Assembly (NCBI GenBank): GCA_965230905.1
Contig: OZ246396.1
Location: forward strand, 1,140,001 to 1,172,000
Source: Candidatus Saccharimonadota bacterium
GTDB taxonomy: Bacteria; Patescibacteriota; Gracilibacteria; UBA1369; 2-02-FULL-48-14
Reading direction: 5' to 3'
DNA length: 32,000 bases
Under the pieces are notes generated by a model. That model searched no databases and was not told the origin of the DNA. It was given only the letters and a program-made list of their open reading frames with translations. A program made the translations under genes and the position numbers. Positions 16,642-23,638 of this stretch are shown here, piece by piece (position 1 is the stretch's first letter; each line of letters starts with the position of its first letter).

Positions 16642-17130
16642 TCAACTGGTGAGAGCGAGTAAAATGATGTTTACGATGATCCAGGAGGAAAGTACGAGTA
16701 CAAAACCTCCAATGGCGTGGGTGATGATGGTTCTCCCTTTCTCTTTATCGTCCGTGAGTCCGCCTGCAATGTAATAGTACGCGCCCACCATGATCATCAG
16801 CACTAGAATCAGTCCGGCTAAGTCGATCACAAACTCAATCGCAAAAATAACGTAGTAGGGAACCATCCAAAACTGAATTTCGCCGGTTTTTAAGGCGCAG
16901 CCTAAAATTGCCTCGATATCTGCTTTTTCTCCTACATCGATCATTTCCTTAAGTTTGTCTTCATCTTGAAAGATTCCTTCCCAAAAGGCCCAGTTGCTTT
17001 GATCATTAGGATCACAGTTGAACCATTCGTCACTGGTTTCGGGAAGAATTGTGGTTGCAGCAAAAGCGTTTGGGGCAAAACAATAAAATGCGGCAAGTCC
17101 CGTGAATAGTATTTTTTTGGCGAGGTTCAT
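16642..17130 (-). CDS. secreted two-TM small protein, type IV secretion pilin-like (TrbC/VirB2-like, CPR 'T4SS_pilin' architecture)
   Basis: It has a signal peptide (MNLAKKILFTGLAAFYCFAPNAFA) and then two C-terminal TM helices joined by a G..D.EKG loop (LILVLMIMVGAYYYIAGGLTDDKEKGRTIITHAIGGFVLVLSSWIIVNIIL). The stop lies 1 nt before the AI-2E start. Confidence 0.5.
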   Translation of the reverse strand: MNLAKKILFTGLAAFYCFAPNAFAATTILPETSDEWFNCDPNDQSNWAFWEGIFQDEDKLKEMIDVGEKADIEAILGCALKTGEIQFWMVPYYVIFAIEFVIDLAGLILVLMIMVGAYYYIAGGLTDDKEKGRTIITHAIGGFVLVLSSWIIVNIILLALTS

Positions 17131-18851: not shown

Positions 18852-19775
18852 TTAAAGCAGTTCGTTGAGTAAGGCCACCCATTCCTTGCGAATTTCTGAG
18901 CGGCGATCTTTATCGTGGAACTTGAGCATCGTGGGGGAGATAACGGTGCCGCTGCGATCTTTAAGGTCGTAAAATTTATCTTTGGCTCGGCGAATTTGTT
19001 TCTCACGTGTTTTTACTTCCCATTCGTCCTTATTGAGGATTTTTTCAGCCCAGCTTTTCATTTTATCTTGAAACGGAGTGGCTTTCCGGAAGAAACGGCG
19101 GTGAGGCGTTACGGTTCTAAAATATTCTTCCAGCCAGGCACGATTTTCTTCCAGAATTTTTTCGTACACCGTGTAGTCCCCGGCAATGGGCTCCAAGGTT
19201 TTGAGCCAGTAGGCAAGGTAAATATCATAGGGTTCTTGGGCGAGTTTTTTGAAATCGGTGGAATCTTCCGAAAGGTAGAAGCTTAGGCAGAAACGTCCTT
19301 CGGTTTTATTCCCGTGGCGGCGGACTCCAAAGAGGCTGGTGAGTACGGTGAGGCAGAGTCGGGCCAGGAAGAGGCGATTTTTTTCGGTGACCACAAGCAG
19401 GTCGATGTCGCTGCCTTCGTCTACGGCATAAATGGGTAAACTGTTGCAGACGCAGACCAGTTTTACAAAAGGACAGATTGAAAAGAGCCATTGGTAGCGG
19501 CGTACCTTTTTCCAGAGTTTTCGGGAACGCTGTACTTTTTCAAAGAATTTTTCGTGAAAAGCAGGGTCGCTGGAAAGGGAATAATAACCTTCCGTGAGTT
19601 TAATGAGCGGGCTTTCCTTGAGGTAAATGCTGATCTTTTCTTCATCCGGCTGCGCGAAAAACAAATGTTCACTCAGTTCGCTGCGGGTCAGGGGGACTTC
19701 AAAGAGCTGGAAATACGCAAGCGTGGAGAGCACCGCCTGCTTCATGTTCATGTTTTTTGGAAAGACTTCGCTCAT
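18852..19775 (-). CDS. Pol-beta-superfamily nucleotidyltransferase-domain protein with an N-terminal winged-helix-like region
   Basis: The protein is 307 aa. VCVCNSLPIYAVDEGSDIDLLVV fits the h[GN]S-x(10)-DhDh minimal NTase motif. The N-terminal segment is AVLSTLAYFQLFEVPLTRSELSEHL. Function is unknown. Confidence 0.55.
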   Translation of the reverse strand: MSEVFPKNMNMKQAVLSTLAYFQLFEVPLTRSELSEHLFFAQPDEEKISIYLKESPLIKLTEGYYSLSSDPAFHEKFFEKVQRSRKLWKKVRRYQWLFSICPFVKLVCVCNSLPIYAVDEGSDIDLLVVTEKNRLFLARLCLTVLTSLFGVRRHGNKTEGRFCLSFYLSEDSTDFKKLAQEPYDIYLAYWLKTLEPIAGDYTVYEKILEENRAWLEEYFRTVTPHRRFFRKATPFQDKMKSWAEKILNKDEWEVKTREKQIRRAKDKFYDLKDRSGTVISPTMLKFHDKDRRSEIRKEWVALLNELL

Positions 19776-19813: not shown

Positions 19814-22087
19814 ATGGCTCAAAAGAAGATCGAAGCGCTACTCAAAAAATTGCCGTCTACGCCCGGCGTTTATAAAATGAGGGATGGCGAGGGGCGGATT
19901 TTGTACGTGGGGAAGGCAAAAAACCTGAATAAGCGTGTGCGCTCGTATTTTAGAAAAACCGTGAAAGCCGTGCGAACGGAAAAGATGCTTGAGCACGTGG
20001 AGGATTTGGAATGGATTGAAGTGGGCAGCGATTTGGAAGCCCTGATGCTGGAAACGAATTTGATCAAAGAGTTCCGTCCCAAATACAACGTGCTGATGAA
20101 GGACGATAAGAATTACGTATATATAAAGATCACGAAGAATGAGGATTATCCACGGATTGAAATTGTGCGAAAGGTTTTGAAAGATGGCGCACGCTATTTT
20201 GGACCAAAAACGGCGGCTCATACGGTGAAGAAAACGCTGGGTCTTTTGCAGAAACTCTTTATGTACCGCAGTTGCGACCTTGGTATTGATTGGAACGACG
20301 GCGCCGCGAAAGTGACTCGAAAAACCATCGCGTATCCGTGCCTGGATTACCATATTAAGCGCTGCGCCGCTCCTTGTATCGGAAAAATTTCTCCTGAAGA
20401 TTATGGCCGTTCTATTGAGAGGATTGAGTATTTTTTAGAAGGGAAAAGTGGGGAAATCGAAAAATCTTTAGAAGACCAGATGAACGCCTGCGTGGCTAAA
20501 AAGGAATATGAAAAGGCCGCACTGGTACGTGACAAATTGCTTTCACTTCGGCAACTTTTTGACAGCAAGCAAATCGTCACGTCGCCGGATTTGGAAAACA
20601 TGGATATTTTGGGCTTTGTGCTGGAAGGTGGCAAAGCATATTTGAATCTCTTTATGCTGCGGAATGGCAAGCTGATTGATCAAGAAAATTTCATTGCGGA
20701 TGCGGGTGGGTATGAAGCCGGCGAAGAAGACCAGGCGCAGGAAGTGGTGGAAGCTTTTTTGTATCAGTATTATGAAAAGGCGACTCAAATTCCGCCGCAG
20801 ATTTTGATTCCTGTGGAGTTTGAAGAGGCCGATTTTTTCATGACTTGGGCTGGGAATCAGGCGGGGCGACGGGTGAAATTGATCACGCCCGAACGTGGGA
20901 AGAAACACAAACTCGTGGAGCTGGCCGAAAAAAATGCTCGCAGCTTTTTGAAACAAAACAAGGCTCGTTGGGAGAGCATGGCTCCTTCCGATCAAGAGGC
21001 TTTGGAGGAACTTTCTCATGCACTGAGTTTGCCCAAGCCGCCTAAACGCATGGAGTGTTATGACAATTCGCATCTCGGTGGCACGGACACGGTGGCTTCC
21101 ATGGTGGTTTTTGAAAATGGCGTCGCTAAGAAATCGGATTATCGCAAATTCAAACTGCAAACTTTGGTGGATGGCGAGATCGACGACTTCAAGGCCATGA
21201 GCGAAATTTTGCTTCGTCGTCTTTCTCACTTGCAGCCCGTGCCTGCGGGAATTCAAATTCGCAAGGCAGCTAAAACCAATGTGCCGGGCATCCAAACCTT
21301 GCTTAAAGAATGGCGCAACACCGAAGAAATTGAAGGCAATTTGAATGAATACCAGGTGGTGCTTAAAGACAAAAAAGTCCTTGGATTTTTGCGACTTTTG
21401 CCGGGAAAGGACGCCACCTATCTTATAAAAGCTCTCTATGTTACGCCGAAAGCTCGTGAGCAAAGGCTGGGTCGAGCACTTATTTTTTGTGCGCTTGAAA
21501 AAACAAAGGCCAAGCGAATTTATGTGACGTGCGTAAGTGAAATGGAACCGTTCTACGAAAAGCTAGGCTTTGAAAAAATCAAAACCTTTCCATCAGAATT
21601 TTCTGAGCAGCTTTTGCCACTCCTAATGGCTTACGATCCTTCCAAACACCACGATGCTTCTTTTGAGACTAAACCGGATCTCATTGTAATCGATGGAGGG
21701 AAAGGCCAGCTCAGTGCTGCACTTAAAAGCCGCGATGCCCTCGGTCTCACTATTCCTATGATTGGTCTGGCAAAACGTGAAGAGGATGTATTTATTCCCG
21801 GCGCAAGTTTCCCTCTCCTCATTCCAAAAGACTCCAAGGCCTCGTACTTGCTGCAACGAATCCGCGACGAAGCCCACCGTTTTGCCATTACGTTCCAAAA
21901 AGACTCTCGCAAAAAACATATAACGCATTCTGTGCTCGATGAAATTCCGGGTATTGGAAAGGCCACTAAAATGAAACTTTTGAAGAAGTTTGGGTCGCTC
22001 GAAAAAATCAAACAAACGAGTGCAGAGGAGCTGACTGAGCTAGTGGGGAAGCGTCTAGCTGAGAAGATCTCCTTATTCTTCCGGTAA
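19814..22087 (+). CDS. uvrC: excinuclease ABC subunit C with a nested GNAT-like insertion
   Basis: It has a GIY-YIG domain (PGVYKMRDGEGRILYVGKAKNLNKRVRSYF), a UVR domain (EYEKAALVRDKLLSL), an endonuclease domain (ECYDNSHLGG ... PDLIVIDGGKGQL ... IGLAKREE ... RIRDEAHRFAITF) and a C-terminal HhH (LDEIPGIGKATKMKLLKKFGS). The protein is 757 aa, against ~600 aa for typical UvrC. Confidence 0.93.
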   Translation: MAQKKIEALLKKLPSTPGVYKMRDGEGRILYVGKAKNLNKRVRSYFRKTVKAVRTEKMLEHVEDLEWIEVGSDLEALMLETNLIKEFRPKYNVLMKDDKNYVYIKITKNEDYPRIEIVRKVLKDGARYFGPKTAAHTVKKTLGLLQKLFMYRSCDLGIDWNDGAAKVTRKTIAYPCLDYHIKRCAAPCIGKISPEDYGRSIERIEYFLEGKSGEIEKSLEDQMNACVAKKEYEKAALVRDKLLSLRQLFDSKQIVTSPDLENMDILGFVLEGGKAYLNLFMLRNGKLIDQENFIADAGGYEAGEEDQAQEVVEAFLYQYYEKATQIPPQILIPVEFEEADFFMTWAGNQAGRRVKLITPERGKKHKLVELAEKNARSFLKQNKARWESMAPSDQEALEELSHALSLPKPPKRMECYDNSHLGGTDTVASMVVFENGVAKKSDYRKFKLQTLVDGEIDDFKAMSEILLRRLSHLQPVPAGIQIRKAAKTNVPGIQTLLKEWRNTEEIEGNLNEYQVVLKDKKVLGFLRLLPGKDATYLIKALYVTPKAREQRLGRALIFCALEKTKAKRIYVTCVSEMEPFYEKLGFEKIKTFPSEFSEQLLPLLMAYDPSKHHDASFETKPDLIVIDGGKGQLSAALKSRDALGLTIPMIGLAKREEDVFIPGASFPLLIPKDSKASYLLQRIRDEAHRFAITFQKDSRKKHITHSVLDEIPGIGKATKMKLLKKFGSLEKIKQTSAEELTELVGKRLAEKISLFFR

Positions 22088-22471
22088 ATTCTCCTGAACT
22101 TTCTTTTTAGTGAGTCCCAGCTGAGCCAAGATGTCTTTGGCACGCTCACCGAGTGAGGGTCTGATCAGTGCCTGAAGGCGCTTTACTAAACTTTCGATGT
22201 TATCTTCTCTTATATGGTAAACATTGTCTTTAACTCGATCATGACCTGGATACCTACTTCTTAAGCCTGCTTTGAGTTGATCAGTATCCGTTAACAATTT
22301 TCTGGCAAGTTCTGGATCTTGCGTTCTCTCAGCTACGTTGTAGAGCGCTTCTCCCGATAAACGGTAGATTTCTTCAACAGGCATGGCTTTAGCAACTCGT
22401 ACATGATCTTGCCAAGTCATTTCAAGGCCTGGAATGCCTCGGTCTCCTCCTACTTTTGAGAATCTTGCCAT
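22073..22471 (-). CDS. hypothetical protein (132 aa, soluble, helical)
   Basis: This is the only long ORF in this interval and it has ordinary amino-acid composition. It overlaps the uvrC 3' end by 15 nt. I recognise no motif. Confidence 0.5.
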   Translation of the reverse strand: MARFSKVGGDRGIPGLEMTWQDHVRVAKAMPVEEIYRLSGEALYNVAERTQDPELARKLLTDTDQLKAGLRSRYPGHDRVKDNVYHIREDNIESLVKRLQALIRPSLGERAKDILAQLGLTKKKVQENLPEE

Positions 22472-22656: not shown

Positions 22657-23097
22657 ATGAACCAAGAAACCCTTCTCAGTGAACTCAAAGCGTCCATGAT
22701 AGCCAAGGATGAACTTAAAACCTCCGTGCTGCGCATGCTCAAGGCTGAAGTTTTGAAAATTCAAACCGATGGAACGGGCACAGAAATTACAGAAGACTTG
22801 ATTCAGAACCTTATTCAAAAAATGGTGAAGCAACGTAAGGATTCCGTTGAGCAATTTACACAAGGCGGACGACCTGAACTGGCTGAAAAGGAAGAAAAAG
22901 AAATCGCCCTCCTCATGGCTTATATGCCTGCCCAAATGAGCGAAGACGAGGTGCGTGCCGAGGTTCAAGCCACCAAAGCTGCACTCGGCATCACTGACAA
23001 AAGCGGCCTCGGAAAACTCATGGGCGCGCTGATGGGCAAGCTCAAAGGAAAGGCTGACGGAGCGATGATTAAGAAGATGGTGGAAGAATCTTTTTAA
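22657..23097 (+). CDS. yqeY: GatB/YqeY domain-containing protein
   Basis: LKASMIAKDELKTSVLRMLKAEV...KQRKDSVEQFTQGGRPELAEKEEKEIALLMAYMP...KLMGALMGKLKGKADG is the YqeY family pattern. A TATAAT lies at 22631-22636. Confidence 0.85.
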   Translation: MNQETLLSELKASMIAKDELKTSVLRMLKAEVLKIQTDGTGTEITEDLIQNLIQKMVKQRKDSVEQFTQGGRPELAEKEEKEIALLMAYMPAQMSEDEVRAEVQATKAALGITDKSGLGKLMGALMGKLKGKADGAMIKKMVEESF

Positions 23098-23531
23098 AGG
23101 GAAATCACGTGTTCCGTGATGTTGATTTCAACGTGGTAGTTGATCTCTTCACCGGTAGCGCTGTCGGTCGTGCTGATTTCTTTATAAGAAATGTCGAAGA
23201 GTGAGTCGGCGTTGAAGGCGTCTGTTTGAGTACTGAGATTGTAGAAGGCCTCCCAGGTGATGGTTTTCATTTTTGCTGGATTTTCACCATCACGAATATT
23301 CACGGTAACCGTGGCGTCGCTCACCTCGTAACGTTCAGCTTCCACGGTAGGATTGCTGATGCTTCCGTCTTCCTCAATTACAACCGGGTCCATGGTGAAA
23401 GAAACGGCATCCACTGCAGTGATGTGAGCGATGCTGATGCTGGTCTCAGAAGTTTCGCTGTTTTCGGTAGGAATGCATCCTGTTAGCAACAAAGAAGCAA
23501 GCAAGGCCGTGTACAGTTTGGATATTTTCAT
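23094..23531 (-). CDS. lipoprotein, unknown function
   Basis: Starting at the ATG at 23531 gives MKISKLYTALLASLLLTGC, a signal peptide with the lipobox LLTGC. The track's longer N-terminus (to 23579) runs into the tRNA and is rejected. Confidence 0.65.
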   Translation of the reverse strand: MKISKLYTALLASLLLTGCIPTENSETSETSISIAHITAVDAVSFTMDPVVIEEDGSISNPTVEAERYEVSDATVTVNIRDGENPAKMKTITWEAFYNLSTQTDAFNADSLFDISYKEISTTDSATGEEINYHVEINITEHVISL

Positions 23532-23549
23532 GATCGAAGAGGGTGAGTG

Positions 23550-23638
23550 TGGTGCCGGAAGTGGGGGTCGAACCCACACTTCCGATGAAGGAAACGGGAT
23601 TTTGAGTCCCGCGCGTCTGCCAATTCCGCCATTCCGGC
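23550..23638 (-). tRNA. tRNA-Leu (anticodon CAA), long variable arm, CCA encoded
   Basis: The minus strand reads GCCGGAA-UG-GCG-GAAUUGGCAGA-CGC-G-CGGGA-CUCAAAA-UCCCG-UUUCCUUCAUCGGAAGU-GUGGG-UUCGACC-CCCAC-UUCCGGC-A-CCA. The 7-bp acceptor, D, anticodon and T stems all pair. The T-loop is UUCGACC. Confidence 0.92.

Follow-up and report, generated by a model that had tools for sequence, protein, structure and literature searches.

UvrC is among the best-studied and most conserved of bacterial repair enzymes, and its domain plan has been thought essentially fixed apart from short loops. The DNA analysed here, a 32,000-nucleotide (nt) stretch of contig OZ246396.1 in assembly GCA_965230905.1 (hereafter the window) from an uncultured Gracilibacteria-type bacterium, encodes a UvrC of 757 amino acids (aa) in which an autonomous domain of about 140 residues with a GNAT fold is inserted in a surface loop of the RNase H-like 5′-incision domain, between helix αA and strand β4. 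The gene and the parts of its product are laid out as follows, with residue numbers referring to the UvrC protein.

19814–22087, + strand: uvrC gene, 757 aa, an open reading frame (ORF) in the standard genetic code with a match to TIGR00194.
19865–20089, + strand: GIY-YIG 3′-incision nuclease domain, residues 18–92 (PF01541, E = 3.9e-11).
20462–20554, + strand: UVR (UvrB-binding) motif, residues 217–247 (PF02151, 30.2 bits against a cut-off of 21.5).
20597–20956, + strand: central inactive RNase H1-like domain, residues 262–381 (PF22920, E = 4.6e-31).
21017–21232, + strand: N-terminal part of the catalytic RNase H-like (RNase H2) domain (PF08459; aligned with 2nrt, 3c65 and 8b0q).
21233–21652, + strand: nested GNAT-fold module, residues 474–613, with the fold core β1–β7 at about 481–607 (three GNAT Pfam families; AlphaFold2 model; Foldseek).
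21455–21478, + strand: β4–α3 cofactor loop (motif A region), R548-E-Q-R-L-G-R-A555, a variant with Arg in place of the first Gly (register from canonical homologues).
21554–21556, + strand: Tyr581 in helix α4, within FYEKLGF (alignment position).
21653–21913, + strand: C-terminal part of the RNase H2 domain (PF08459 resumed; aligned with 2nrt, 3c65 and 8b0q).
21935–22078, + strand: (HhH)2 DNA-binding domain, residues 708–755 (PF14520, 40.9 bits; PF12826, 28.9 bits).

The insert is recognizable as a GNAT domain both by sequence and by predicted structure. It scores 42.4 bits with Acetyltransf_7 (PF13508; cut-off 27), 32.7 bits with Acetyltransf_10 (PF13673; cut-off 23.6) and 32.3 bits with Acetyltransf_1 (PF00583; cut-off 20.7). 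A full-length AlphaFold2 model built with 100 homologues has a mean predicted local distance difference test (pLDDT) score of 85.5, rising to about 90 over the insert, and a model of the insert alone reaches a pLDDT of 94.5 and a predicted template modelling score (pTM) of 0.87. Its modelled elements run β1-α1-β2-β3-β4-α3-β5-α4-β6-β7, the order expected of a GNAT. Foldseek returned 751 Protein Data Bank (PDB) matches at E ≤ 0.001, and all 50 of the 50 listed are acetyltransferase-fold structures. The best are the NAT domain of an N-acetylglutamate synthase (2r8v) and Staphylococcus aureus 3d8p, at a template modelling (TM) score on the query (TMq) of 0.75; ArgA, serotonin N-acetyltransferase, Gcn5 and others follow. 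An initial annotation of this DNA, made from the sequence alone, had read the segment as a complete minimal GNAT fold. The three above-threshold profiles, the confident models and the TM-scores of up to about 0.75 bear this out, and the strands and helices that it named coincide with the predicted β2–β4 and β5/α4.

The protein that carries this module is a bona fide UvrC with its domains in the usual order. It scores 548 bits with the curated equivalog model TIGR00194 (cut-off 285.45) and 546.6 bits with NF001824 (cut-off 451), and it has kept both nuclease sites, the cysteine cluster, the UVR motif and the (HhH)2 domain intact. Among 100 aligned homologues, invariant positions include Y31, R41, E80 and N92 of the GIY-YIG domain, the cluster cysteines C154, C184 and C188, D417, D458, R468 and R469 before the insert, and P621, D627, G628, G629, E686 and H688 after it. 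The N-terminal part of the RNase H2 domain holds D417 (nt 21062–21064) and the helix DDF..M.E.L.RR, and the C-terminal part holds D627 (nt 21692–21694) and H688 (nt 21875–21877); D417, D627 and H688 align with the corresponding residues of 2nrt, 3c65 and 8b0q. The DDH triad of the UvrC RNase H domain has been defined for Deinococcus radiodurans and Thermotoga maritima, and the central inactive RNase H1-like domain is described in the same study (PMC10085695). In the full-length model the GIY-YIG domain matches 1yd6 and 1ycz with a TM-score on the target (TMt) of about 0.9, and the split RNase H domain matches 2nrr with a TMt of 0.88 despite the insert (298 alignment columns, 139-residue target). 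Together, the PF14520 and PF12826 matches cover residues 708–757.

The position of the insertion can be fixed closely. The PF08459 match is split, with residues 402–474 covering profile positions 2–72 and the match resuming near residue 621 at position 70. When the window protein is aligned by HMMER with UvrCs of known structure, residues 472 and 619/620 fall on chain positions 74 and 82 in 3c65, 81 and 83 in 2nrt, and 78 and 87 in 8b0q. The solved UvrCs therefore have 1–8 residues at a connection that is occupied by about 146 residues in the window protein. F617-x3-P621 of the window protein equals the ‘F/W-x-x-x-P-D-L’ of ordinary UvrCs, which places the insert proper at residues 474–613 (nt 21233–21652). 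It lies between the helix that ends in RR469 and the strand that carries the catalytic D627. As a wider control we took 63 UvrCs from GTDB genomes across bacteria, among the matches listed in a genome scan with full-length alignment, and counted residues from the RR helix (‘D[FY]..M.E.L..R’) to DGGxGQ: the distance is 157 in the window protein, as against 13–71, mostly 15–30, in the controls. The upper end of that range, 45–71 residues, comes from some Chloroflexota/Dehalococcoidia and Acidimicrobiales UvrCs (L015, L016, L026 and L042), none with a domain-sized segment there; such loops suggest that the αA–β4 site is a general hotspot of UvrC length variation. These comparisons agree with the initial annotation on the 140–150 extra in-frame residues that bring the protein to 757 aa (its limits, residues 470 and 620, are nt 21221 and nt 21673) and on the placement between the first and second catalytic Asp (D417 and D627 flank the insert). 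Alignment with the T. maritima, Geobacillus and Deinococcus UvrCs defines the boundaries, and no solved or control UvrC has a segment of equivalent length. Its figure of about a dozen residues for a canonical UvrC holds for many UvrCs but not for all, given the range in the controls. Because the insert enters strand β4 (residues 623–626) at the end opposite D627, the module should project from the face that points away from the DDH active site and leave that site undisturbed, as judged from topology.

The architecture is lineage-wide and under purifying selection. A word-indexed search with the insert alone returned 3 matches only, and relatives were collected with the full-length query and with an exhaustive profile search. 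The 120 best database relatives are 558–797 aa long, the shorter ones being partial and the full-length ones about 700–800 aa, with 43–93% identity; where named, they are UvrC of ‘Candidatus Gracilibacteria bacterium’. UvrCs longer than 700 aa with the same insert, for which the initial annotation proposed a search, are abundant. All 100 of the aligned full-length proteins, the window protein included, carry the insert at the αA–β4 site (118–173 aa, median 151). The exhaustive search with the insert profile, over 1.84 billion cluster representatives at 50% identity, gave 142 matches at E ≤ 1e-10. UvrCs make up at least 75 of the 150 best matches, and in them the match lies at about residues 470–660. 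Three independent assemblies (Logan SRR22388191, Logan SRR31757421 and NCBI GCA_040960375.1) have the same architecture in a common gene order: AI-2E transporter, pilin-like gene, Der, unknown gene, UvrC-GNAT, YqeY, DsbA-like, Obg and Pth. Between the window and these three, the ratio of non-synonymous to synonymous substitution rates (dN/dS) is about 0.06–0.14 for the insert and 0.03–0.05 for the rest of the gene, values usable as an order of magnitude only because dS is saturated (above 1.3, in some cases undefined). The insert has changed about two times faster than the rest of the protein: its median identity is 24% against 51%, and its dN is about double.

The taxonomic placement of the clade is drawn from a few NCBI labels (‘Candidatus Gracilibacteria bacterium’) and from one GTDB genome labelled Candidatus Peribacteria (L001), whose UvrC has a degenerate insert of the same size. 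The name Candidatus Gracilibacteria is often tied to genetic code 25, in which UGA encodes Gly. In the window, TGA is the stop codon of 8 of 28 long ORFs, which indicates the standard genetic code; the organism probably belongs to a code-11 lineage that is Peribacteria/Peregrinibacteria-like.

The cofactor loop varies across the clade in a way that bears on what the module does. Canonical homologues such as ‘V-T-P-K-A-R-E-S-G-I-G-K-G-L’ fix the register of motif A, and its equivalent in the window protein is R548-E-Q-R551-L-G553, with helix α3 beginning at L552 in the model. The first Gly of the motif is Arg or Lys in the window’s subclade. The initial annotation had placed motif A at QRLGRA, and its coordinates are right (nt 21461–21478, CAA AGG CTG GGT CGA GCA). 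A register shifted by two residues, Q550-R-L-G-R-A555, does fit the pattern Q/R-x-x-G-x-G/A literally, and the nearest relatives read QRLGRS, KRLGRS or KKLGRS, without keeping the exact string QRLGRA; by homology, the fit would be a coincidence of a two-residue shift. The variant loop need not disqualify the site: a solved GNAT, 3d8p, has R-N-L-K-I-G at motif A, with the same replacement of the first Gly (R-x-x-K-x-G).

Among the 100 sequences, the loop is canonical in 22, a first-Gly variant in 21 (including the window protein), deleted in 37 and otherwise degenerate in 20. Four positions, R548, G553, L556 and Y581, are 86–100% conserved in the canonical and variant groups; within the window’s own variant group G553 and Y581 are 100% conserved, L552 95% and R548 90%. 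Tyr581 occupies the position of the usual general-acid tyrosine of GNATs, with a presumed catalytic role. This position is Tyr in 100% of the canonical and variant groups, is most commonly Tyr at 40% in the degenerate group, and is most commonly Phe (49%) where the loop is deleted. The R548, G553, L556 and Y581 positions are lost together in the deleted-loop group, and the joint absence of cofactor loop and α4 tyrosine there implies a function for both wherever they remain. Another set of residues, K484, K487, G524, Y570, G585, P593, K611, D614, S616 and F617, is conserved in every loop group. Of 76 inserts, only 43 retain a GNAT Pfam match. A distance tree built on the UvrC core places the loop deletion in one deep clade, with the other degenerate lineages scattered among canonical ones; no lineage on the tree has lost the GNAT domain. 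In the window’s lineage the cofactor site appears largely preserved, with a loop of the right length and with Arg548, Gly553 and Tyr581 conserved, so that the module most likely still binds (acetyl-)CoA. For the window protein itself we consider such binding probable on balance, and catalysis possible.

The genes around uvrC, among the window ORFs compared with Pfam, are ordinary chromosomal housekeeping genes; neither uvrA nor uvrB was identified among these, some ORFs not having been compared. A 307-aa ORF at 18852–19775 (− strand), divergent from uvrC, has no Pfam match and is kept at the same position, with 297–299 aa, in all three syntenic relatives (L083–L085); its ‘GSDIDLLVV’ stretch recalls nucleotidyltransferase-fold proteins, in our impression. 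Two further ORFs without a Pfam match, at 22073–22471 and 23094–23579 (both − strand), flank yqeY, and the former shares 15 nt with the 3′ end of uvrC. yqeY directly follows uvrC in L084 and L085, and a different, 232-aa gene does so in L083, which marks this spot as variable between close relatives. At 16642–17130 (− strand) lies a 162-aa ORF; the ORFs at the equivalent syntenic position in relatives, between the AI-2E transporter gene and der (162–166 aa), match T4SS_pilin (PF18895). An 802-aa protein encoded at 220–2628 (− strand) has HEAT repeats at about residues 450–530 as its only recognizable feature, and is unusual for a small-genome bacterium.

Nested domains also occur elsewhere in the data searched. 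A 1093-aa leucyl-tRNA synthetase (LeuRS; P0141), found in two independent assemblies (L081 10001–13282 and L082 6567–9848), has two nested GNAT-like modules, at about residues 236–357 and 549–646, that flank the CP1 editing domain. Both fall in the small-GNAT subfamily of the UvrC insert (profile E = 3e-21, 26–28% identity), with the ‘K-x-I/F-P-x-x-F/W’ tail included; of the 120 best LeuRS relatives, P0141 and P0275 alone are arranged in this way. Distances from the LeuRS modules to the UvrC inserts and to free GNATs are about the same, so no direction of descent, such as derivation from the UvrC insert, can be claimed. Many LeuRS of ‘Patescibacteria group bacterium’ (P0277–P0391) are 900–1350 aa long and contain extra Pfam domains: NUDIX, Ser_hydrolase, α/β-hydrolase, Ham1 and IS200-like Y1 transposase. 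A 599-aa fragment of a class-I aminoacyl-tRNA synthetase (P0239/P0272, from ENA and JGI data) has a GNAT module at residues 362–482, directly after the anticodon-binding domain. In the Patescibacteria radiation, housekeeping proteins may recurrently carry nested domains of enzyme fold.

The interpretation that we favour, by a modest degree, is that an active GNAT entered UvrC in one ancient insertion, that the window’s lineage probably still binds the cofactor, and that the role shared by the clade would be non-catalytic. A functional small GNAT would have been inserted once into a permissive loop of the RNase H2 domain, in the ancestor of a large code-11 Gracilibacteria/Peribacteria lineage of the candidate phyla radiation (CPR). 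The domain would then have been kept under purifying selection in every sampled descendant, and the cofactor site would have been lost repeatedly with the fold always retained. In the window’s lineage the module may transfer an acetyl group, whether to a small molecule or to a lysine within the repair complex. The clade-wide role must be non-catalytic, because all orthologues keep the domain, although the majority have no cofactor loop and the tyrosine, too, is gone from one large clade. The likeliest shared roles would be as a structural element or a surface that contacts DNA or another protein, or as a segment that the split host domain needs in order to fold. The speculation in the initial annotation that nucleotide excision repair is coupled to acetyl-CoA does not hold as a clade-wide function, given the 57 of 100 orthologues without the cofactor loop. 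The net charge of the insert, +4.4 per 100 aa as against +2.3 for the rest of UvrC and +0.7 for free GNAT relatives, weakly suggests proximity to nucleic acid.

Several observations weigh against this interpretation. Pyrophosphate might be bound less well where motif A has Arg for its first Gly. The data point to no acceptor: the window protein scores 34.7 bits with the amino-acid N-acetyltransferase model PRK07757 against a cut-off of 154, and ArsN2 (23.6 against 125) and RimI (20.9 against 86.4) are both far below theirs; none of the named acetyltransferase families (PRK07757/PRK07922, ArsN2 and RimI) reached its curated NCBIfam cut-off, and searches of NCBIfam and PDB sequences for a substrate assignment returned generic, sub-threshold GNAT matches only. 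The excess of basic charge is small, the placement of the module relative to the active site and DNA rests on topology (the full-length model has a pTM of 0.51), the tree is a simple neighbour-joining distance tree, and the saturation of dS limits what dN/dS can say about selection.

The module could instead be a pure pseudoenzyme in the window protein too, a GNAT-shaped structural or interaction domain that no longer binds acetyl-CoA and persists only because it is needed by the split RNase H domain or for contact with a partner; it would be comparable to the HAT-like domain of O-GlcNAcase. The retention of the domain in the 57 orthologues without a cofactor loop, the Arg at the first Gly of the window’s motif A and the roughly twofold faster evolution of the insert all fit such an account. 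It has difficulty with the conservation of G553, Y581, L552 and R548 in the window’s own group, which is hard to explain if the site is dead, and with the joint absence of loop and tyrosine in the deleted-loop clade, which implies function where they are kept; the R-x-x-K-x-G variant of 3d8p and the three GNAT Pfam models above cut-off also speak against it. We regard it as rather unlikely, though deserving of weight. A different possibility, which we hold to be quite improbable, is a housekeeping acetyltransferase of an ordinary kind, whose substrate might be, for example, an amino acid, a small molecule or a ribosomal protein and which, in a streamlined genome, happens to have lodged in UvrC; its reaction would have nothing to do with nucleotide excision repair, and the fusion would give co-expression only. 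The nearest free-standing relatives of the insert are indeed generic GNATs of about 145 aa, weakly like amino-acid N-acetyltransferases, ArsN2 and RimI, and the GNAT, NUDIX and hydrolase extras of Patescibacteria LeuRS suggest that nesting of unrelated enzymes is common there. However, one would hardly expect most lineages to let a housekeeping activity decay and yet keep its domain, the scores to named acetyltransferase families are far under their cut-offs, and nesting in a catalytic domain would presumably be costlier than terminal fusion as a route to co-expression.

An artefact or a selfish element, whether a chimeric assembly, an intein or a mobile insertion, is effectively refuted as the source of the insert. 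GC content does dip to 0.42–0.46 across the insert, against 0.46–0.51 in the flanks, but over 100 proteins have the same in-frame insert, in independent assemblies from ENA, JGI, NCBI and Logan and with gene order conserved; the insert is under purifying selection, and the reading frame is unbroken across it. Inspection for repeats and signs of mobile elements around the insert yielded only short chance matches. An intein was considered specifically and rejected: no Hint or intein family is among the Pfam matches at E ≤ 1, and the junctions L473/Q474 and H613/D614 lack Cys, Ser or Thr and His-Asn.

A bolder variant of the single ancient insertion, which strikes us as improbable, has the GNAT domain making 5′ incision or UvrC turnover responsive to acetyl-CoA wherever the cofactor site is kept, with the small-GNAT subfamily being recurrently ‘insertable’ in Patescibacteria. 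The response could run through acetylation of UvrC itself or of a partner, or through allosteric binding of the cofactor beside strand β4, which carries Asp627. If true, ultra-small CPR bacteria would have nucleotide excision repair gated directly by metabolism, and a small-GNAT module would have colonized loops of several nucleic-acid enzymes of Patescibacteria, namely UvrC and a leucyl-tRNA synthetase with two modules.

The architecture shows that the UvrC nuclease core tolerates, and perhaps exploits, a large nested domain of enzyme fold across a deep CPR lineage. Within one structural context the clade offers GNAT modules that look active, variant modules and decayed ones, a series formed by nature and suited to asking whether acetyl-CoA or acetylation bears on bacterial excision repair and to studying the change from enzyme to pseudoenzyme. 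No description of a UvrC-GNAT architecture was found in the open-access literature; one Gracilibacteria genome paper mentions uvrC and does not comment on a GNAT insert. The novelty claimed in the initial annotation stands in this respect but not as rarity, since such proteins are far from rare in databases, where they are named plain UvrC, an annotation that hides the extra domain in Gracilibacteria-type genomes.

Compared with canonical UvrC (TIGR00194; 2nrt/2nrr, 3c65, 8b0q and 1ycz/1yd6), the window protein has the same domains in the same order, passes the equivalog cut-off and has invariant catalytic residues; it differs in the roughly 140 extra residues that form a separate folded domain in the αA–β4 loop, for which the longest stretch among the sampled UvrCs is about 65 residues. 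Species-specific loops in the RNase H2 domain of UvrC are otherwise short, for example 17 aa between β6 and β7 in D. radiodurans, and a 2023 structural study suggests that such short loops may be partner-binding sites (PMC10085695). With small single-domain GNATs (3d8p, 2q7b, 2r8v, ArgA 5yge and RibT 5xxr) the module shares the fold (TMq 0.67–0.75), the order of elements, and the V-x-P-x-x-R...G loop with the α4 ‘YExxGF’; 3d8p also has the first-Gly replacement, with Lys, and the ‘LP..F’ tail. Unlike these proteins, the UvrC module is nested in the catalytic domain of another enzyme and is neither free-standing nor terminal, and the cofactor loop is lost in most UvrC orthologues.

Two other systems offer partial parallels. 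The HAT-like domain of O-GlcNAcase reportedly keeps a GNAT fold within a larger enzyme and lacks acetyl-CoA-binding features, as do the 57% of UvrC orthologues with a deleted or degenerate loop; that domain is terminal, whereas the UvrC module is nested, and the window copy keeps most of its cofactor-site residues. The Tn5, hAT and RAG1 transposases have a whole domain inside an RNase H-like catalytic core, between catalytic residues. Their insertion comes after the second Asp and is an all-α or other DNA-contacting domain, not an enzyme fold, with no known homology to the UvrC module. On its testable features the window protein belongs both to UvrC and to the GNAT superfamily, with motif A as a variant, and it is the architecture itself that is new.

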